Shown here: in pieces, positions 47,046-56,338 of the stretch
Numbering within the stretch: position 1 is the stretch's first letter
Layout of the letters: the number at the start of each line of letters is the position of its first letter
NCBI GenBank assembly: GCA_039794085.1
Contig: JBDIWC010000027.1
Location: 1-56,338, forward strand
From: Gemmatimonadales bacterium
GTDB lineage: Bacteria; Gemmatimonadota; Gemmatimonadetes; Gemmatimonadales; GWC2-71-9
Length of the DNA stretch: 56,338 bases
Direction of reading: 5' to 3'
Translations under genes and position numbers: made by a program
The notes under the pieces: model-generated
Told to the model about the DNA's origin: nothing
The model's database searches: none
The model's input: the letters and a program-made list of their open reading frames with translations, nothing else

Positions 47046-47180
47046 CTCCGGCGGTCGAGCCCGACCAGGTCGGGCGGCAGGGCCGAAGTCTATTGCCCGG
47101 ACCCCGCCGGGGCAACTCGGTGGGAATTCCGCGTTCAACCGGCGGTGGCAATCTCCACCGGGATCGATAGCTTGGGACCC

Positions 47181-48254
47181 ATGACAACGCTTCCCCCTGC
47201 CCGCACGATGTTCCGGGCCCTGGCCGACCGGGATCCCGCCTGGGACGGCGTCTTCCTGGTGGGCGTCCGCACCACCGGGATCTTCTGCCGTCCCGTCTGT
47301 CCCGCCCGCAAGCCGCTCCCCGCGAACGTGGAGTACTTCGCCACAGTGCAGGAGGCCCGCTCGGCGGGATACCGTGCCTGCCGCCGGTGTCGCCCCGAGG
47401 AGGAGCCCGGATCCCGGCCGGAGTGGGCCGAACGGCTCCTCGCGGCGGTCAATGCCGATCCCGCCGCCCGCTGGACCGACGAGGATGTCCGGCGGTTCGG
47501 TGTGGAACCGGCCCGGGTGCGGCGGTTCTTCACCGCGCGGTACGGCATGACCTTTCAGGGATGGCAGCGGGCCCGGCGCCTGGGAGGTGCCCTGCAACAG
47601 ATCAACCAGGGAGAGGGCCTCATGCGGGCAGGATTCAGCGCGGGATATGAGTCGGACAGCGGATTCCGGGACGCGTTCAAGACGGTGTTCGGGGCACCAC
47701 CCGGCCAGGTACGCGGGTCGGACCATGCGGTGGTGGAACTCCTCCCCACCCCGATCGGGCCGCTGCTCGCCGCCGCCACCGACCAGGCGCTCTGGTTTCT
47801 CGAATTTCTCGACCGGCGCGGCATCCGCGGTCAGGGGGCCACCCTGCTCCGGCGGGTCGGGATGCCGGTCCTTCCGGGCACCAACGCCATCCTGCAGCGC
47901 ACCGCGGAGCAGCTCGGCGAATACTTCGCGGGAGAGCGGCGACAATTCGACCTGCCGCTCGCCGTCGTGGGGACCCCGTTCCAGGAGAAAGTCTGGCACG
48001 CGCTGCTGGCCATCCCGCACGGAGAGACCCGCTCCTACGACCAGATCGCCGAGGCGGTGGGGAAACCCGGGGCGTCGCGGGCGGTGGGGACCGCCAACGG
48101 GATGAACCGGATCGCGATCGTGGTGCCGTGCCACCGGGTGATCCGGAAGGACGGGGCGCTGTCGGGGTACGGCGGCGGGGTGTGGCGGAAGCGGCGGCTG
48201 CTGGAACTGGAAGGGGCGGGGAATGGGGAATTGGGAATCGGGAGCAGGGAATAG
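47181..48254 (+). CDS. ada: Bifunctional transcriptional activator / O6-methylguanine-DNA methyltransferase
   Basis: TTGIFCRPVCPAR, RACRRC (Zn), AraC HTH, VPCHRV active site. Confidence 0.95.
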   Translation: MTTLPPARTMFRALADRDPAWDGVFLVGVRTTGIFCRPVCPARKPLPANVEYFATVQEARSAGYRACRRCRPEEEPGSRPEWAERLLAAVNADPAARWTDEDVRRFGVEPARVRRFFTARYGMTFQGWQRARRLGGALQQINQGEGLMRAGFSAGYESDSGFRDAFKTVFGAPPGQVRGSDHAVVELLPTPIGPLLAAATDQALWFLEFLDRRGIRGQGATLLRRVGMPVLPGTNAILQRTAEQLGEYFAGERRQFDLPLAVVGTPFQEKVWHALLAIPHGETRSYDQIAEAVGKPGASRAVGTANGMNRIAIVVPCHRVIRKDGALSGYGGGVWRKRRLLELEGAGNGELGIGSRE

Positions 48255-48404: not shown

Positions 48405-48627
48405 TTCCCCGGGGCTGACGCCCCTTGCTCGGCCGGGGGAGGTGGCTTACGCCACCGGCAGCCCAGACGAACACCCGGCCGGGTGAACGGCCTCTCGCCG
48501 CCGAGCCCGGGGCGAAAGCCCCGGGGAACCCGCGCGACCCCGAGGCCCCTCTTTGGTTCCGGCTCTGCCGGCTTTGGAGGGAATAGGGAGAGTGGGTGTA
48601 GGGGCGCGGCGTGCCGCGCCCGCCTAC
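48405..48627. repeat. REP-like inverted repeats between convergent genes
   Basis: 29-nt inverted repeat 48405-48433 / 48500-48528 (4 mismatches) and GTAGGGGCGCGGCGTGCCGCGCCC at ~48598-48621. Confidence 0.6.
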
Positions 48628-51600
48628 TGCGTGGCCCGGAGACGATCCCGGAGGTTTGCCGCCACCGGGTTCATGCAGTCCGCGCCGAACGGCACCGTCG
48701 TGGAACTGATCAGGGTGAAGGGAGCGGTGGTGGCGCGGGTCGTCACCAGGCAGGTCAATCGGCCACCGGAGACCGTTCCCTCCCTCAGGGTCATGCGTGC
48801 CGCCTGGGCGTCGATCTGCGGCATCTCGAAGTTGAACCCGAAGTCGCTGCTAAAATTGTTGAATATCCCCGAGGGGTAGGCAAAGCGCTCCGGGAAAGTC
48901 ACGTTCGCCCCGATGGCACCCTGGGAGATTCGGTGGGCCGAATAGGTCAGGGAGGGATTGGGGCCAAAGGCAAAATTGAGGACTTCACCGAGAACGAACA
49001 GATCGCCGTCCGGACCCCACACCGCACCAGTGCTGGTCCCCCCGGTACAGCCGTGAGCCCTGACTCGGCTCCGGTCACTGGTTTGGATGCTGATCTTCCA
49101 CGTGGTGTTCTGGGACCCGAATCCACACGCCCCCACCTCGGTTGCTCCCACCAACAGGTCTTCCCCCGTCGGAGAAAACGCCAGCCATCGGATGAAGGTC
49201 GACACCAGGGTAGCCGATTCCACTCGGTCCTCCAGCCGCCCGAGGTTCTCGATGGCTCCGGAACCACGCCGGATGGTAACGTGATAGCCGAGATGCATGC
49301 CCACGAGGTTCACCCCAACGTCCGCCGGAGCGTCCACTGGATCCCCCCACCAGATATCCACCGTGTCCGATTCGAGAAAGCGCCGGGCATACAAGGTCCC
49401 CAAGGCCCTGCCCAACCACATGCCGGAATTGAGCGACATCTCGAAGCTCGGGCCACTCAAATCGGGAGGGGTGTTGAACCGGAACCCCGACACCGCCATC
49501 TTCCGGCCACCCTGGGCAACCGAGACGTCGTGGTACGGCTGTGCCAGGGGCGGTAGGGAAATCATTTCGGTTCCTCGCGCACGTTTGAGGGCGATGCTCT
49601 GGCTCCCTACTCCCCCCGTGAGCACCGCCGGGAACCCGCAAATCGGGATCCCCGAGCGCTCGGCGGAGAGGAGGGAGAGGGCCCCGTAGGCGTCGAGCTG
49701 GTAGATCGTCTCCGGGGCGCCCGCCACCGGCTCCGCGGCCACCGAATCCCCGGTCGCGGGGTCGAGCCGTGCCACCCGGGCCCCGCGGAGGATGTAGTCC
49801 TTCACCTGCGCCGCCGTGAGCGTCGGGTCCATGGTCCACAGCTGCGCGGCCACCCCGGTGACGAACGGAGCTGAAAACGACGATCCAGAAAGCGCCAATG
49901 ATGTCTGGTTGCTTGCGCCCAAGGTCAGTATCCGCTCCCCGGGCGCCAGGATATCCGTTCCCCCCTTCCAGAAGTTCGTACCTGAAAGGAAGGTTCCATC
50001 AACTCCGGTCGCACCCACCGTGATAATATGGTCCGCCTTCCCCAGTGAGTCCCGAAGTATCGCCACCGCCTTGTCAAGTGCAGAGAACATAGTGTCGGTC
50101 GTTCCCCGCAGCTCGGACATCGTCGGGGTCAACCCATCGTTACCTACCGCATAAACGAGGATCCCACCTCGCCGAAAATATAGGTCGAATGCCTTCACGA
50201 GGTTGCGAATCAGCAAGGACTCTGCCGGAAAGCCAATGTCGGACGACAGAGACAAGAGACGTGTCTTCTGTATGTCACTCAGATCCTCGAAATGCTTCCA
50301 AAGCTCCGTCACCACGTCTCTTGACTTCCCGCCGGACTTCCCATAGCCATAGATCGTGAGGTCCGCATTCCACATCACCCCCGCAATTCCCGTGGCGTTG
50401 TCACCTTTAGCTGCGAGAATTCCGGCTACCTGGTTTGCGTGCTCGAGATCCTCTCGAGTTGGCAGCGGGGTGAATTCAATCAGACCGCTGGGCTCGCGGA
50501 TCACAACTCCAGGGAGGTCCACATGGCTTTTAGCCTCTCGATCAATCACTGCAACCTTGACCGTGTTCCCATACATTCCGTTTTCGCAGCCCCATGCCAA
50601 GGGAGCCCGGATAGCAAGCAACCCTCTCGTCGCATCCGTTGCCGTTGCCGAAAACCAATCCTCTCGAGTTGATTGCGGCCCATCATTGGGATAACGAGCC
50701 TTCAGCCGAAACCGACCACGCCAAGTGGGAATATATGCGCCGAGCACCCCCGGTTCCCTGTCAATCTCGTTGGCGATTCGGTCAATTGCTTCGTAGGTGC
50801 CGCCAGGATCTTGGACTTGAACAAAGAACACTGTGGCCGGGAAGGCGCCCGTTCCTCCGATGATGACGCCTTGGTATTTCACAAGAATCTCCTGGATTCT
50901 CAGCCCGCTCGTCGAGTCATCAAACATCACGCCAACAATGTCCCGGTAGTACCGAGCTTCGGTACTCCAAGGAGCAGTCACGGTCCTCGTAGAGTCATCC
51001 GGAAGATCGAAGCTCGCCGGAATCACCGGCCGACTGGTGTCCCCCACCACCAACTCCATGACCAGCCGCGGCATTGTCCCGCTCTCCCGGCTCCCGAACT
51101 CCACCCGGCCCGCCTGACCCTCCAGGGTCTTCTTAAGGATCCACCCATGGTGCTCCCCACTCCCTGCGAGCACGGCCGCCAGCTCCGCGGTCACATCGAG
51201 CGACACCACCCCGGTCAGTCCATTCGTGATCGTCGCTGTCGCCGCCGGGACCTCCTCCCAAGGACGTGCGCCGCTCCCGCCCATGGCCCACTCCGTTTCG
51301 CCCGTGCAGTCAGCCCGGGAATTCGATGGATCGGCATCCACGGCGCAGTTCCAGGTGGCCCCCGCCTCGGTCCACGCCTGAGTGAGCCGGTGCAGGTCGA
51401 TCGTCCGTCCCGTACTACCCCAGTTGTTGGCGTTGACCGCGATGGTGAGCTCGAGCCGAGCCCCCTGAAGCGTGCCGGCCCCCACGGCGGCCGCGATCGC
51501 CGCCCGGTCGAACCGGAGCAGCGCCCGGTTGTTCCCGCTCGCCTGAAGACGAAGGATCGGATCAGCGCCCTGCGACTGATTCGGGGCCCCCTGCCGGAGG

Positions 51601-51749
51601 TACGTATCGGCCGCCGGCAGCAGGGTCGTTTCCTGCACCGAGGCCACGGTCTGGAATTCGGCTGCCCGTTGTCCGGTATCAGGGTCCTGCTCGGTGGGGA
51701 AGAGGCAACCCGACGCCACCACGGCGCCACACAACGCGATGAGACTCAT
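48624..51749 (-). CDS. Lipoprotein: DNRLRE/CBM96-like domain + S8 subtilase + C-terminal beta-rich domain
   Basis: GGAGG RBS; lipobox ASGC; PAADTYLRQ...RALLRFD...WTEAGATWN; triad VAVID, EHANQVAG, GSSFSAPFVTG; oxyanion AVGND. Confidence 0.85.
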   Translation of the reverse strand: MSLIALCGAVVASGCLFPTEQDPDTGQRAAEFQTVASVQETTLLPAADTYLRQGAPNQSQGADPILRLQASGNNRALLRFDRAAIAAAVGAGTLQGARLELTIAVNANNWGSTGRTIDLHRLTQAWTEAGATWNCAVDADPSNSRADCTGETEWAMGGSGARPWEEVPAATATITNGLTGVVSLDVTAELAAVLAGSGEHHGWILKKTLEGQAGRVEFGSRESGTMPRLVMELVVGDTSRPVIPASFDLPDDSTRTVTAPWSTEARYYRDIVGVMFDDSTSGLRIQEILVKYQGVIIGGTGAFPATVFFVQVQDPGGTYEAIDRIANEIDREPGVLGAYIPTWRGRFRLKARYPNDGPQSTREDWFSATATDATRGLLAIRAPLAWGCENGMYGNTVKVAVIDREAKSHVDLPGVVIREPSGLIEFTPLPTREDLEHANQVAGILAAKGDNATGIAGVMWNADLTIYGYGKSGGKSRDVVTELWKHFEDLSDIQKTRLLSLSSDIGFPAESLLIRNLVKAFDLYFRRGGILVYAVGNDGLTPTMSELRGTTDTMFSALDKAVAILRDSLGKADHIITVGATGVDGTFLSGTNFWKGGTDILAPGERILTLGASNQTSLALSGSSFSAPFVTGVAAQLWTMDPTLTAAQVKDYILRGARVARLDPATGDSVAAEPVAGAPETIYQLDAYGALSLLSAERSGIPICGFPAVLTGGVGSQSIALKRARGTEMISLPPLAQPYHDVSVAQGGRKMAVSGFRFNTPPDLSGPSFEMSLNSGMWLGRALGTLYARRFLESDTVDIWWGDPVDAPADVGVNLVGMHLGYHVTIRRGSGAIENLGRLEDRVESATLVSTFIRWLAFSPTGEDLLVGATEVGACGFGSQNTTWKISIQTSDRSRVRAHGCTGGTSTGAVWGPDGDLFVLGEVLNFAFGPNPSLTYSAHRISQGAIGANVTFPERFAYPSGIFNNFSSDFGFNFEMPQIDAQAARMTLREGTVSGGRLTCLVTTRATTAPFTLISSTTVPFGADCMNPVAANLRDRLRATQ

Positions 51750-51940
51750 GCGGAACCTCCCTGTGTCACAGGAGACGAACTCCGGGCGCCATGCGTGACA
51801 CCGGAGCGGAACCGCACTGGATCCCGCTATCACGGAATGCGAGCGGTCAGATGCAGAAAGTTGCGCGGGGGGGGGGGGTACTCCAGAACGGGGCTCATCA
51901 TCTCCTCCACTGGCGTTGGGATACACCACTCGACCCTCTC

Positions 51941-51969
51941 AAGCTGGGAAAGATCGTGGCGCGTGTCAA
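51941..51969 (-). promoter_or_regulatory. Putative sigma70 promoter of the subtilase gene
   Basis: TTGACA-17 nt-CAGCTT on the minus strand. Confidence 0.4.
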
Positions 51970-52136
51970 GCACTTTGTTGTGGTGTCGGCGGGTTGTCAC
52001 ATGCGAACCCACCCTGGGGCGACCACGAGTCGGTTCGCCCCTGAGCCCTTGGGTGCGTCGCGTGCGGCGCACCATGCCCGTGCGGAGGGTCAGTTCACCT
52101 GGATCCGGGTCGGGCGCCGCGCCTGGCACACCGATC

Positions 52137-53237
52137 TCAACGGACGACGGTGGAAAGTATCCTTAGACGAGGGAATGGATCGTTGGACAGAGAGATCGCC
52201 TGCGCAGCCGTGACCTCGATCAACGGAGGCAAGTCATCGCGTTCACCTAGCACTCGTCCGTCCTTGGAAACCAGGAACGTCTTCCTGCCCACCACGGTTC
52301 GCCCAGCGACGAAGTTTCCTTCGAGTCGCTCGAACTGCACTCCGACGATGCCTCCCGGACTCGCGAACACGCTCGCGCCGACATCCGCGATTCCATCCTG
52401 CGGAACGATGTGACGCACCCCCCGTTCAGTGTCCTCGATGCGATGAGGCCTGAGATTCGGAAAGACTTTTCCCCATCGCTTTTCCCCATCAAGGGAAAAC
52501 GCCTTCGCTTCAGGCAGCCAGTGAGAGACCAAGAGAATCATCTCCGACTCCGCCGAGCAGGCCATTTCAGCCGGACTGAGGATGCGCTCGCGAATCGGGT
52601 TGCGAGCACCAGAACTTTGGCCGAATCGCTCTCCGAACCGGCGCCCGATTGGGGTACCCAGCGAGTCTATCTCCATTATGGGTGGCTGATCGCTGAGGGG
52701 CAGGTACAGGAAGATCCGAGAACCCACAGAACACGCCCGCTCCGCAAAGACCGGTACGGGAAATTGCCCACGCAGGCTCATTCCGTTTGCGGTGATCTCC
52801 ACGACCGTCATTCGGGAATTACGTGGATCGAGAACCCCGACCCCTGTTTTCCCCACACGCACAACCGCCCTCGGAGAGAGGAACTCGCCAGGCCCACTTC
52901 CTGTCCTTCCGAAGCGATCGACCAACCGGCCGGTCGAATCGAATAGCAATAATTGGCTCCTTGCCTCATCAAGCACCAAGACCCTGCTCTCGAGTACGAA
53001 AGCTCCCGCTAACTTTCCAAAAACCACTCCCGTGCCCCTGCCTGACATCGCCGTGTCGGGACTGCCAAGGGCGAGACGTTCCGCACCAAGCCTGAACTGT
53101 TGCCCCACCACCTGGGAACCCGGCACAACCATGCCCAGAAGCAGAGTGAGACGTGTCAGCCGAGCAATGTCCCTGTGAACCAACCGGCCCGTTGAGGACC
53201 GGACCCAACCCTCAAGTGACCAGCGATCAATTCTCAT
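52137..53237 (-). CDS. 6-bladed beta-propeller (NHL-like) exported protein
   Basis: VLVLDE...LLLFDSTGRLVDRFGRTGSGPGEF...P; hydrophobic N-terminal stretch; start uncertain. Confidence 0.8.
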   Translation of the reverse strand: MRIDRWSLEGWVRSSTGRLVHRDIARLTRLTLLLGMVVPGSQVVGQQFRLGAERLALGSPDTAMSGRGTGVVFGKLAGAFVLESRVLVLDEARSQLLLFDSTGRLVDRFGRTGSGPGEFLSPRAVVRVGKTGVGVLDPRNSRMTVVEITANGMSLRGQFPVPVFAERACSVGSRIFLYLPLSDQPPIMEIDSLGTPIGRRFGERFGQSSGARNPIRERILSPAEMACSAESEMILLVSHWLPEAKAFSLDGEKRWGKVFPNLRPHRIEDTERGVRHIVPQDGIADVGASVFASPGGIVGVQFERLEGNFVAGRTVVGRKTFLVSKDGRVLGERDDLPPLIEVTAAQAISLSNDPFPRLRILSTVVR

Positions 53238-53868
53238 CAGCACCATTCCCTCTCTTCTCCCTACTGTGCTGCACCGTATCAGATGCCAACGGACCGCCGC
53301 CCGATGCCATCACGCCAGGAAGGGACATGATGTCCTCTGTGCCAGTATACCTACCTACTATTGAATCCTGTCCCAAGGATATGCCAGCCATGCTGAACTG
53401 CCGAGTCCGCAGGACAAGGACAACCTGTGGAACCTCCGGTTGTCCCGGCGAATCCCTCCAGACGAAACGAACGAGGCCCTCATTAAGCCAATTACCACCG
53501 AGCACGTATTGGTCGAACCGACCCATCTTGTCCAGAAAGCGTAGCCCTTCCTGGCGATTCCTATCCATCGCGATGCCAAGAGTACCGAACGCGAGTCCCC
53601 TCGCCTGTGCTCGTCCAGCAAGCGAGGCCTTTAGCACTTCAAGAGAATCGGGAAATCCCTTCGCTGTGGAGGCGCCACACCATGAAGATCCGATTAACAC
53701 AAGCGTTAGCTGTGGTCTGCTCTGTTCCTCCAGGAATGATACGACCTTCTGCTGCCAAGCCAACGAGTCCGCCGCCGAAATAACGGTAGAGGTCCGAGGC
53801 GGAAGAGACTCGCCCGCGCACCCGGAGCAAAGCACTATCCATGGAAGCACGCACAGCTTTCGCCACAT
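53227..53868 (-). CDS. Thioredoxin-like-fold lipoprotein (CxxS)
   Basis: Lipobox-like CSGC; beta-strand LVLIGSSW followed by CGAS; LGIAMD; VPQVV cis-Pro-like motif. Confidence 0.55.
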   Translation of the reverse strand: MWRKLCVLPWIVLCSGCAGESLPPRTSTVISAADSLAWQQKVVSFLEEQSRPQLTLVLIGSSWCGASTAKGFPDSLEVLKASLAGRAQARGLAFGTLGIAMDRNRQEGLRFLDKMGRFDQYVLGGNWLNEGLVRFVWRDSPGQPEVPQVVLVLRTRQFSMAGISLGQDSIVGRYTGTEDIMSLPGVMASGGGPLASDTVQHSREKRGNGADEN

Positions 53869-53901
53869 GATAGCATCTGTGCACATAGCCAGCAATCTCA
53901 T

Positions 53902-54135
53902 CTAAAATGGGTTAAGTGTTCCCTCGCAAAAGGAGGTTTCACAGGACATCGGATTCCAAGGGTCGAACTGGCAATTCACCCCCGGCTGCCAGGTGCAAAG
54001 CGAGAACAAGCAGCCGCCGTTTACGCAGTGAAGGCGCGTATCAGTAGTAGCTTTCGCGGAAGCAGCTATCAAAGCGATCAAACCGAAGGAAACCAAACCT
54101 ACCGTGACCGGAATGAGAAATCGCTTGAAACTCAT
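53902..54135 (-). CDS. Secreted six-cysteine peptide A (77 aa)
   Basis: GGGAG RBS, signal peptide ending ASAKA, six Cys; homologous to its neighbour. Confidence 0.8.
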   Translation of the reverse strand: MSFKRFLIPVTVGLVSFGLIALIAASAKATTDTRLHCVNGGCLFSLCTWQPGVNCQFDPWNPMSCETSFCEGTLNPF

Positions 54136-54233
54136 GGCCATCTCCCAAATCAAGGAGTGGAATAAATTGCCCACCGCCGCAACGATCGGACGAAACGACT
54201 GGAGGTCGGGTTCCTCTGCCTCGAACAGCCGGC

Positions 54234-54485
54234 TTATGGCTCCAAGGCAGTGTCACATGGAGCAGTATCGCAGATGTCCTCGGCAAGGAAGTGGCACTGC
54301 ATGTACGGCCCCCAGATACAGGTCTTTGGCCCACCGACTTCCGGGCATCTGCCATGGTTGCAGTGGAGAGGACTAGCGGCCCGAGCCCCTCTCTCAGGCA
54401 GAACGAAACCGGCGAGGGTGACGGCGACGACCACAATAATCGCAGCTACAGAACTCCGCCTCCTCCAACTGTGATCGCCTATCAT
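54234..54485 (-). CDS. Secreted six-cysteine peptide B (83 aa)
   Basis: GGGAGAGG RBS, signal peptide ending GARA, six Cys; homologous to its neighbour. Confidence 0.8.
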   Translation of the reverse strand: MIGDHSWRRRSSVAAIIVVVAVTLAGFVLPERGARAASPLHCNHGRCPEVGGPKTCIWGPYMQCHFLAEDICDTAPCDTALEP

Positions 54486-54504
54486 GGATCCCTCTCCCGC
54501 GTTG

Positions 54505-54563
54505 TGACGAATCAACTGCTGGTGTGTTACCCACTATAACACCTGAGGCGCCCCAAATTACCC
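54505..54563 (-). promoter_or_regulatory. Tandem ECF-type promoter candidates
   Basis: GGGTAAT-15 nt-TGTTA followed by GGGTAAC-16 nt-CGTCA, upstream of peptide B. Confidence 0.45.
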
Positions 54564-54576
54564 AACCAACGCGCCT

Positions 54577-56051
54577 TTACCGCCCGGGTGGTCGGGGGCT
54601 ACGAGTGCCCAACCACAACTGGCGTACCTTTCGCCGAGCCCGCCGCGTGATGCCTTCCACAAAACGTGACGTCTTGCCTAGGAGCCCGGCAATTTCCCTC
54701 GCTTTCCAGCCCTCCAAACATGTCAGAGCCTCACCGTCCTGTCGGGCTCTGCCAGACCTTCGATCGCAGCCCGAACTCCGGACACCCACGCATCCCCTCC
54801 TCCGGACCCGAGTACAGGCTCCACACAGCATTCCAGTAAACTCCCTCCTGATCCCTTGACGAGAAGTTCTGTCCGCCTCGATCGATCACGCAGGTGGTTC
54901 ACTGCACGACGCTGCCCAGCATCCCAGAAGTACTGCCCGGCCAGCTTCCGCTGCCGGAGTTCTGCGCGATTCTCCCAGATCTTTGCCCAAATCTCCGCAG
55001 CCACGTCTTCGGCATCGTCGCGGGAGAGGCCTCGACTCATCACGGCGCGGAGCGTACGATCTTGGTGTTTCTGCCACAGACAAGAAAACCATACGTCATC
55101 CGCCTCGGGTTCCAACTCAGTGACGAAGCCCCGCACTCCGTTCATCGCCCCTTGAGATCGGGTATTGCTGGAAGCCACCGCTCGAAGATCCGATTCTCCT
55201 GACAAACTCACATGTCCGCTGCATTGTTCTACCTGAACTGGTATTCCCGAGAACATGCCCGCTGGCGTTGTCCGCGATACCCAGCGCAGGATGCATTCCG
55301 TCGCTCCAGATCGGAACAGTGTGGCCGCCTCAATGCCGAGGCGGCGGCATTCCAGATCCAGCTCCTCAAAGGATTTGAATCCTGCTTGCTTCACCACGTC
55401 CGTGATGTCACCGTGGCTCCGCACCTTGATGAGCGTCCCGTAAAGCCTGGCCGCGAAGCAAAATCCCAGGATTCCAGAGTGCATGGCCTCCGAGACGCGC
55501 TCACCTATGGCAACGTCAAGGGGGAGGTCAGTGCTACTCTGTTCCCAAATTCCGTCCTTCGCATCACACACCAGCTTAGCCAACGCGAGCCGACACCTTG
55601 GCGTAAGGCCCTCCGGCAGCGCGTACAGGAACCCTCGAAGATCATCCGGAAGTAGGATCCCGGCCAACCGGAGGGCTGTCATGTCAGGACCTTCCTCAGT
55701 CCTTCGAACCCGAAACATCTGCAGGCCGGACCGTGTGTCGTTGGACGGAAGTACCTCTCCTTCCGAGTTGTCCAAGAGGATCACCTCGATGCCGGCTGCG
55801 ATCAGAGGGTTCAGAGGGGAGGAGGACCCCACCCCACCCCTTGGGCCCAGATAGCGTTTCCACGCTTGAACGTCCATCAATAGGACGACTGGCTCCCCAG
55901 ACTGGATGAGCCCGGAGGTGTGCGGAAAGGAGCCGAGAGGGTGGATTACCCAACCGCGATCAAAAGCTTCCCTTAAGATCACCATGGCCTCGCATACACA
56001 CGTCAGGACATCCAGATCCCCAACCTCCACTGCAAGTCGCCCCCCCATCAT
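54577..56051 (-). pseudogene. AraC-like regulator joined in frame to an ECF sigma factor, with a frameshift before region 4
   Basis: ITDVVKQAGFKS...CRRLG (AraC-like HTH); region 2 DDAEDVAAEIW...AVNHLR; frame stops at 54723 while region 4 (LEGWKAREIAGLLG...TRRARRKVR) continues in another frame to 54577. Start uncertain. Confidence 0.7.
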
Positions 56052-56338
56052 ACCCACCCTTTTGATTGTGAACGCATCCAGTCGTGGTAGCGACTTCTCC
56101 CATCCTCTTCCGCTTCCCGCCACCGAACATGCAAGTGCACCCGCAGTACCTCCCCGTTCCACAGGAGACGAACCCAAGGTGCCGGGCGGGATATCGAAGC
56201 AGGCCCGCCCAGATTCGGTTGTCGCGGATGAGCGGGGGGGGGGGGGGGGGGGGGGGACGGGAAAACCTTGCCCTCCCCCCCCTCCACAACACGATACTTT
56301 TCCACGTCAAACAAACCACCGCCTTTCACCTCTTTTTT

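Follow-up and report, generated by a model that had tools for sequence, protein, structure and literature searches.

Gene content of the cassette

The window analyzed here, contig C27 of the Gemmatimonadales assembly GCA_039794085.1 (JBDIWC010000027.1; 56,338 nucleotides from a genome of 4.16 Mb, 66.8% GC and 94.7% completeness), carries at positions 52,137–56,051 five open reading frames (ORFs), all on the minus strand, four of which make up the cassette in question: two precursors of six-cysteine peptides, a thioredoxin-like enzyme and a beta-propeller. An original prediction, made from the sequence alone, had described five co-oriented genes in an island of lower GC, and this description holds: the GC fraction of the island is 0.584, compared to a genome mean of 0.669 ± 0.020, and is equally low in 3 of 1005 genome windows of island size. 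As also stated then, no radical SAM, YcaO, LanM or peptidase-ABC gene accompanies them; none appears in Pfam and NCBIfam scans of six ORFs. Peptide, enzyme and propeller almost certainly form a unit, foreign in appearance, which as a whole matches no named family. The trio is real and, as far as the literature was searched, undescribed (no account of a peptide–enzyme–propeller unit was found in titles and abstract starts).

The precursors of peptide A (83 amino acids; 54,234–54,485, minus strand) and peptide B (77 amino acids; 53,902–54,135, minus strand) each have a predicted hydrophobic signal peptide with an AxA-type cleavage site, as read from the sequence, followed by a mini-protein of 47 and 48 residues, respectively, that has exactly six cysteines, in agreement with the two exported six-cysteine peptides originally predicted. 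The cysteine spacing is 4-8-7-7-4 in peptide A and 4-4-7-9-4 in peptide B, with net charges of -4 and -3; the two are paralogues, identical at 15 of 46 positions, and the stop codon of peptide B directly abuts the start of the enzyme gene. Across related peptides the scaffold is C-x4-C...C-x4-C, the first gap being four residues in 39 of 43 and the last gap in 37 of 43, while mean identity outside the cysteines is 13% across 41 cores; up to four peptides stand in tandem at one locus. The same 41 mature peptides yield no NCBIfam match, curated bacteriocin families included, and only eight single stray matches in Pfam. Because 33 of the 41 cores are net negative, 5 neutral and 3 positive, the antimicrobial role put forward at the outset is unlikely in its classical cationic form. 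The model of peptide A (48 residues; pLDDT 77, pTM 0.52), compared with known three-disulfide folds such as knottin, EGF, defensin and pacifastin, has a C-terminal hairpin and matches no structure at Z ≥ 2 among 48,161 chains, nor any at E 0.001 in another search; blank searches with such a model would not prove a new fold.

A second strain, represented by runs X4, X5 and X7 of one study with the cassette on a single contig of 4.35 kb, shows where the locus varies. In run X7 the propeller, the enzyme and most of peptide B differ from the window at 38 of 1930 bases, the regulator ORF upstream (discussed below) at 28 of 1336, and the region of peptide A (54,052–54,544) at 54 of 493 (11%), with 6 gaps besides.

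The one-cysteine enzyme and the propeller

The enzyme gene (53,227–53,901, minus strand) encodes a protein that is, judged by its fold model and family profile, of the TlpA/ResA/CcmG fold with a single active-site cysteine. It has no Pfam or NCBIfam match. The model (pLDDT 94) contains the TlpA-type insertion and the cis-Pro position, its best structural match is CcmG (Z 8.6, rmsd 2.8 over 110 residues), and a Foldseek match to TlpA/ResA/CcmG/DsbE-type structures reaches E 2.7e-5. The enzyme thus resembles TlpA, ResA and CcmG in fold, in membrane anchor or signal and in cis-Pro position, but differs from them in sequence (13–21% identity to solved members), in the absence of a Pfam match at cut-off and in the second cysteine, which is retained in few relatives. 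Its own motif is CGAS, that is CxxS and not CxxC, the latter occurring in 7 of 44 locus proteins. A profile built from 39 homologues retrieves 2,008 clusters at E ≤ 0.001 among 1.84 billion representatives, and since 1,838 of these match at 1e-10 the family is both large and sharply bounded. In the best 150 of the 2,008 family representatives the first cysteine and the cis-Pro position are invariant (150/150), and the active site reads CxxS in 94, CxxC in 22, CxxA in 20 and otherwise in 14. Named members are annotated as "hypothetical", one of them being from Rhodothermus; a thioredoxin Pfam model (Thioredoxin_8) touches 3 of 129 family rows (best E 7e-4) with no match at cut-off. A sequence search with the profile turned up no protein of solved structure, and a plasmid search with the protein itself found no record. 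A glutathione peroxidase, suggested by the SxxCxxS site, was considered and dropped, as the cis-Pro is invariant and TlpA-like folds rank first. Of the "thioredoxin-like lipoprotein" of the original prediction the thioredoxin fold stands and the lipoprotein is in doubt: the lipobox is imperfect, and 6 of the 150 representatives have a lipobox-like start. Short signal-bearing members of the enzyme family at three loci (L039, L040, L045) stand alone, with neither peptide nor propeller.

Because one cysteine is invariant (in a CxxS site here), the enzyme appears more likely to be a disulfide shuffler than an oxidase, and the motif makes it a likely disulfide isomerase or holdase for the peptides. 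The single-cysteine site is shared with yeast Eug1p, whose CxxS is described as unable to form the internal disulfide needed to oxidize and yet as suited to shuffling (PMC2195995). Another source discusses both Cxxc sites and the cis-Pro, the latter as a feature for substrate binding (PMC2757866).

The propeller gene (52,137–53,246, minus strand) encodes an exported six-bladed propeller of NHL type. The identification as a beta-propeller made initially is upheld by a PF17170 score of 33.4 bits (cut-off 22.9); its profile also matches TRIM-NHL structures at E 1e-35 to 1e-41 and NHL proteins that include SOQ1 (E 0.002). Two cysteines are invariant in its subfamily, and no histidine is conserved, the best column having it in 14 of 33 rows. 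PAL-type catalytic NHL propellers have conserved histidine metal ligands; with no histidine column above that value, assignment to this type was rejected.

Recurrence and linkage across the phylum

The enzyme family is present in 48 of 301 genomes of the phylum, at 73 distinct places, of which 40, chosen among the stronger matches, were examined over 10 kb. Of these 40 regions, 36 contain a propeller, and a six-cysteine peptide is present in 30 (full-length profile, E < 0.01; 24 of its 26 seeds came from those same 40 regions) or in 26 when a profile of the mature part only is used; among the ten regions left over by the full-length profile, three have a different Cys-rich peptide and two a six-cysteine peptide about 5 kb off. 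Over all 73 enzyme matches, 50 have a propeller of the subfamily within 5 kb. Peptide-profile matches occur in 22 of the 301 genomes, all 22 within the 48 that have the enzyme, and 45 of 48 peptide matches (15 of 18 among non-seeds) lie within 10 kb of an enzyme match. The original prediction was to fall if homologues of the anchor genes lacked adjacent peptides, and these counts (30 of 40 regions; 15 of 18 non-seed matches) speak in its favor on this point. In the genome under study the three best peptide matches, with peptide A the best of all, adjoin its only two enzyme copies.

Propellers are less tightly bound. Half of the subfamily matches in the phylum (58 of 116, counted over at most 7 candidates per genome) lie within 5 kb of an enzyme match and the other 58 adjoin neither enzyme nor peptide, while 8 of 11 non-seed propeller loci, read to 1.5 kb, have an enzyme or a peptide. 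The wider propeller family numbers 67 in this genome, of which one other belongs to the same subfamily, with no partner upstream. When 52 secreted Cys-rich peptide candidates of the genome were picked mechanically, 25 proved to have a co-oriented propeller at a distance of no more than 1.5 kb, compared to 1.5 expected, and none had an opposite one only; seen from the propellers, 23 of the 67 have such a peptide and 44 have neither enzyme nor peptide beside them. Dependence within the trio is therefore one-way: the peptide needs the enzyme, the enzyme is mostly found with a propeller, and propellers are often alone. Orphan immunity genes are established in polymorphic toxin systems, and a one-way dependence of this sort is what orphan genes for immunity proteins or receptors would show; a biosynthetic role of the propeller fits it less well.

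Several observations extend the survey. The roughly 25 secreted peptides that adjoin propellers in this genome have 4–8 cysteines and belong to several scaffolds (contigs C22, C25, C30, C31, C35, C41, C53, C69, C71, C79, C92, C93, C103, C104, C108 and C109). Peptide A ends in LEP, as do many Cys peptides of this genome; an LEP-like tail closes 13 of the 52 candidates, on more than one scaffold, and may serve as a signal for sorting or binding. A second Cys-rich scaffold (L058, L065, L066, L070) is accompanied by a monothiol enzyme clade of its own, these enzymes forming one clade of 4 rows with support 100/100. In five of the 40 enzyme regions the six-cysteine module is fused, beside the enzyme gene, to a probably helical domain of about 150 residues that has no Pfam match (L038:5180-5890, L042:5076-5825, L044:6279-7115, L046:1826-2560, L048:5242-5982). 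One natural in-frame fusion of peptide and propeller, with no internal signal, also occurs (L068:3455-4891, minus strand, equivalent to L109:5455-6891). The cassette was not found in two same-genus genomes searched. A single-protein scan of the genome collection gave back nothing besides the query's own record; the range beyond the phylum is based on one Rhodothermus member and on an Atlas lead to a Balneolota-rich cluster.

Comparison with known systems

The sublancin locus includes the oxidoreductases BdbA and BdbB. The pediocin PA-1 locus encodes the dedicated thiol-disulfide oxidoreductase PedC (PMC4919988). Bacteriocin loci and the trio are alike in that a small exported disulfide peptide is encoded next to a thioredoxin-fold helper of its own and to a partner gene; unlike those loci, the trio has a Sec-type signal, no ABC exporter, acidic peptides, a mostly monothiol helper and an NHL propeller as partner. 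Membership among class II bacteriocins or glycocins was rejected, as none of the 41 peptides has an NCBIfam match and no exporter or modifying enzyme is found among six ORFs.

In Bacteroidota, NVEALA peptides (PF14055) adjoin PF17170 propellers. The analogy with them drawn by the original prediction is good for the arrangement, a small exported Cys-rich ORF beside a PF17170 propeller, and fails for the family: neither precursor has a Pfam match to it at E up to 1, the scaffold is different, and the trio has a dedicated monothiol enzyme family. No literature on NVEALA or on DUF5128 was found in the search.

A thioredoxin-like domain and an NHL domain are joined in a single chain, with a CC(I/V)NC motif, in SOQ1/NHLRC2 (PMC6107167). 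The resemblance to the trio consists in a TlpA-like thioredoxin domain that acts together with a six-bladed NHL propeller, with SOQ1 acting in a lumen compartment; SOQ1/NHLRC2 differ in being one polypeptide with CCINC and no conserved bacterial gene neighbors (PMC6107167; 10.1101/2024.11.01.621559). Here the genes are separate, the site is CxxS and the six-cysteine peptide is variable, so that membership of the trio in the SOQ1/NHLRC2 family was rejected on the first two of these grounds.

Regulator ORF

Upstream of the peptides lies an ORF of 442 codons (54,723–56,051, minus strand), the last ~140 residues of which hold sigma region 2 (Pfam E 6e-4, below cut-off), while sigma region 4 (54,577–54,722, minus strand; PF08281 E 0.004) is in another frame, with the break near 54,725. 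A profile made from the ECF sigma factors of this genome matches the two pieces (E 1e-10 and 1e-6). The ORF scores 12.7 bits with TIGR02937, for which the cut-off is 42.9, and is not among the 35 matches of the genome; the ECF sigma factor first proposed is thus not an intact gene. For the first ~300 residues there is a lead only, an Atlas feature likeness to Gemmatimonadota AraC/HTH_18 clusters (0.90, 185 of 256 features); this AraC reading has no Pfam (PF12833) match and no pairwise match to two paralogues of the genome. Homologues are absent among 7,994 candidates for the ORF and 167 for its sigma part. The ORF is probably a decayed chimera of AraC-like and sigma parts, and the frame break may be an assembly slip. 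The source run has the same break and is not independent; the contig of the second strain has 305 letters where the window has 297.

No homologue of this regulator is found in any of the 40 enzyme regions. Since regulators of both kinds (ECF and AraC-type) flank other cassettes of this genome, and an ECF-like match lies within 5 kb in 9 of the 40 regions, regulators are best described as variable companions, and the broken one here as a passenger of the insertion site. Induction of the whole set by the ECF sigma factor, as first envisaged, is accordingly not upheld for a gene that is frame-broken here and has a homologue in none of the regions. In another peptide cassette of the same genome the preceding AraC-type gene is also split between two frames (G000:C41:2745-3858, plus strand), and the regulators of such cassettes may commonly be decayed. 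At 56,048–56,140 (minus strand) a 30-codon ORF follows the ribosome-binding site of the leader described below, and its stop overlaps the start codon of the regulator; it may be a coupled leader ORF or what is left of a gene.

Subtilase and leaders

Downstream of the propeller, and not a member of the unit, lies a surface subtilase lipoprotein (48,624–51,749, minus strand) that was correctly recognized as a surface subtilase: it has PF00082 with Asp, His and Ser motifs, and a DNRLRE/CBM96 domain. It is separated from the cassette by its own conserved leader of ~370 bases (51,750–52,120, minus strand). In a genome of the same genus the orthologue is present together with this leader (mean column identity 89% over 467 columns), the likeness ending just short of the propeller stop, and there another subtilase, not the cassette, precedes that leader; in the second strain the same leader is joined to the end of a subtilase, and much of the present subtilase is without cover. 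No homologue of the subtilase is found in any of the 40 enzyme regions or the 20 propeller regions, its seven paralogous pieces elsewhere in the genome all lie away from propellers, and its close relatives, confined to 9 of 301 genomes that all belong to the same family, form tandem arrays; three regions read there lack any match to peptide, enzyme or propeller. The subtilase is thus an unrelated neighbor, a passenger of the insertion site, and the proposal that it processes the peptides or is inhibited by them is not supported by these regions, by its separate leader or by the arrays elsewhere; a dedicated enzyme–substrate link is not indicated.

The DNA upstream of the cassette (56,135–56,338, minus strand) is itself homologous to subtilase leaders by DNA likeness, with a G/C tract, a shared 14-mer and a ribosome-binding site. 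Because such a leader precedes it, the cassette seems to occupy one position in an array of subtilases, and because both stand behind homologous leaders, shared regulation of cassette and subtilase is possible. Subtilase arrays may swap gene cassettes slot by slot (56,135–56,338 and 51,750–52,120; G110 L143). Without subtilase and sigma factor the unit narrows to three genes.

Proposed mechanism and alternatives

The reading preferred here is that the cassette would be a single copy of a mobile gene unit with three parts, consisting of a polymorphic exported mini-protein, a dedicated foldase and a cognate propeller that neutralizes the mini-protein as an immunity protein would; taken whole, it falls slightly short of an even chance. 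The peptides would be exported by Sec with cleavage of the signal and oxidized by the general envelope oxidase, a step assigned to the latter because CxxS alone cannot carry oxidizing equivalents. The dedicated enzyme would then, with good probability, shuffle the three predicted disulfides through mixed disulfides, an isomerase role deduced from the CxxS motif, and the propeller would on balance be expected to bind the folded peptide. More tentatively, the peptides could be polymorphic, target-specific effectors in cell competition, not membrane-lytic, with the propeller as neutralizer. The locus has traits of the kind expected of conflict: the low-GC island, patchy presence, the low identity outside the cysteines, the divergence of peptide A and the surplus of orphan propellers.

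A number of observations weigh against this reading. Five of the 40 enzyme regions have no peptide of any kind nearby; of the three peptide matches away from an enzyme, two are alone in 12 kb and one has a propeller and no enzyme; and a copy on contig C1 of this genome has peptide and enzyme with no propeller. The pairing is not one-to-one, and the unit includes no export or delivery machine and no recognizable toxic domain. The propeller, with its two invariant cysteines, could itself be the client of the enzyme. Eighteen of 20 further propeller loci, chosen mostly for having no nearby enzyme match, have neither enzyme nor peptide, for which reason the propeller may have a function of its own and may act without a peptide. 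The peptide–propeller fusion is a single case and a four-cysteine remnant that has lost two of six cysteines, with no further fusion among 20 more propellers or 10 longer relatives. Finally, the linkage counts overstate the association, since related genomes are not independent and some seeds came from the very loci counted.

The same linkage and the same asymmetry would also arise if the mini-proteins were strain-specific signals and the propellers their envelope receptors, with output through nearby ECF or AraC-type regulators and orphan propellers listening to other strains. A propeller is found no more than 2 kb from 5 of the genome's 31 ECF genes, two other peptide cassettes have an AraC-type gene in front of them, and acidic peptides and the ECF-like matches in 9 enzyme regions agree with signaling as well; however, 31 of the 40 regions have no ECF-like match, the local regulator is frame-broken and without homologue, and the unit includes no membrane transducer gene, so that this explanation is regarded as unlikely. 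Less probable still is an envelope thiol relay, in effect a split SOQ1/NHLRC2, in which the enzyme would be complexed with the propeller, its active cysteine turned towards the blades' side of the partner, and the six-cysteine protein serves as redox substrate or carrier. It draws on the profile match of the propeller to SOQ1, on the SOQ1 thioredoxin domain among the fold matches of the enzyme (Z 7.5), on the frequency of a propeller near the enzyme (50 of 73) and the existence of enzymes with no peptide, and on the NHLRC2 motif, which faces a cleft with the propeller (PMC6107167). Yet there is no CCINC motif and mostly no second cysteine, the genes are separate and in variable order, and a housekeeping role leaves the 13% peptide identity, the tandem peptides and the patchy spread unexplained.

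The remaining two explanations are improbable to a still greater degree. Mini-proteins that bind metal, with the thioredoxin-fold protein keeping them reduced and passing them on to the propeller, would account for six cysteines in acidic cores and for the closest folds CcmG, ResA and TlpA being reductases, but the invariant even number of cysteines, the two fixed four-residue gaps and the hypervariable loops fit a scaffold held by disulfides, a monothiol site makes a poor reductase where no gene for a reductant is close by, and the propeller has no conserved histidine. Hardly to be credited is the full version of the original prediction, in which the subtilase processes the peptides or they inhibit it, and the whole set is switched on by the ECF sigma factor. 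Many protease inhibitors are three-disulfide mini-proteins, the subtilase is adjacent and co-oriented, and the homologous leaders leave room for shared regulation; against it, the subtilase is missing from all related regions, its relatives are those of one family in arrays without the trio, another subtilase precedes the same leader in the same-genus genome and in the second strain, a pacifastin model touches 1 of 41 peptides (E 0.078), and sigma region 4 is off-frame.

Combining the preferred reading, with its neutralizing propeller, with the other scaffolds gives a broader picture that is doubtful as a whole: each Cys scaffold would have its own one-cysteine foldase clade and cognate propeller, with dozens of orphan propellers per genome as a library for immunity or listening, in Gemmatimonadota and at least Rhodothermus. 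The mini-proteins would then constitute an undescribed polymorphic arsenal comparable to that of cone snails, and C-x4-C...C-x4-C would be a new bacterial mini-protein fold, portable on helical proteins and propellers. Most known three-disulfide mini-proteins with hypervariable loops come from animals, plants and fungi, and a bacterial phylum that encodes such mini-proteins by dozens per genome represents a new scaffold library; the unnamed monothiol thioredoxin family of ~2,000 clusters is a candidate folding catalyst for disulfide-rich bacterial peptides, and a testable function is offered for the large orphan family of PF17170 propellers.

Other features of the window

Scans of the window for promoters and terminators were at the level of chance (2 found compared to 1.2 expected, and 3 compared to 4.3, respectively), and an Rfam search of the stretch gave no match. 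A PADLOC match to CARF_TM (E 0.003) was rejected as being at the level of a signal peptide only. The stretch occurs in metagenomes from two studies of hot-spring and biofilm material, and one of the two may be its source; no RNA data set is listed among those that contain it, which has no bearing on expression. Atlas neighbors point to Gemmatimonadota, and one relative is a Longimicrobiales genome. Beyond the subtilase, the ORF at 47,145–48,254 (minus strand) resembles by eye an Ada-type bifunctional regulator and methyltransferase, with a PF12833 match at 47,490–47,714. Between 48,150 and 48,640 lies an intergenic repeat with 229 BLAST pieces genome-wide, which in the second strain appears to border the cassette directly.

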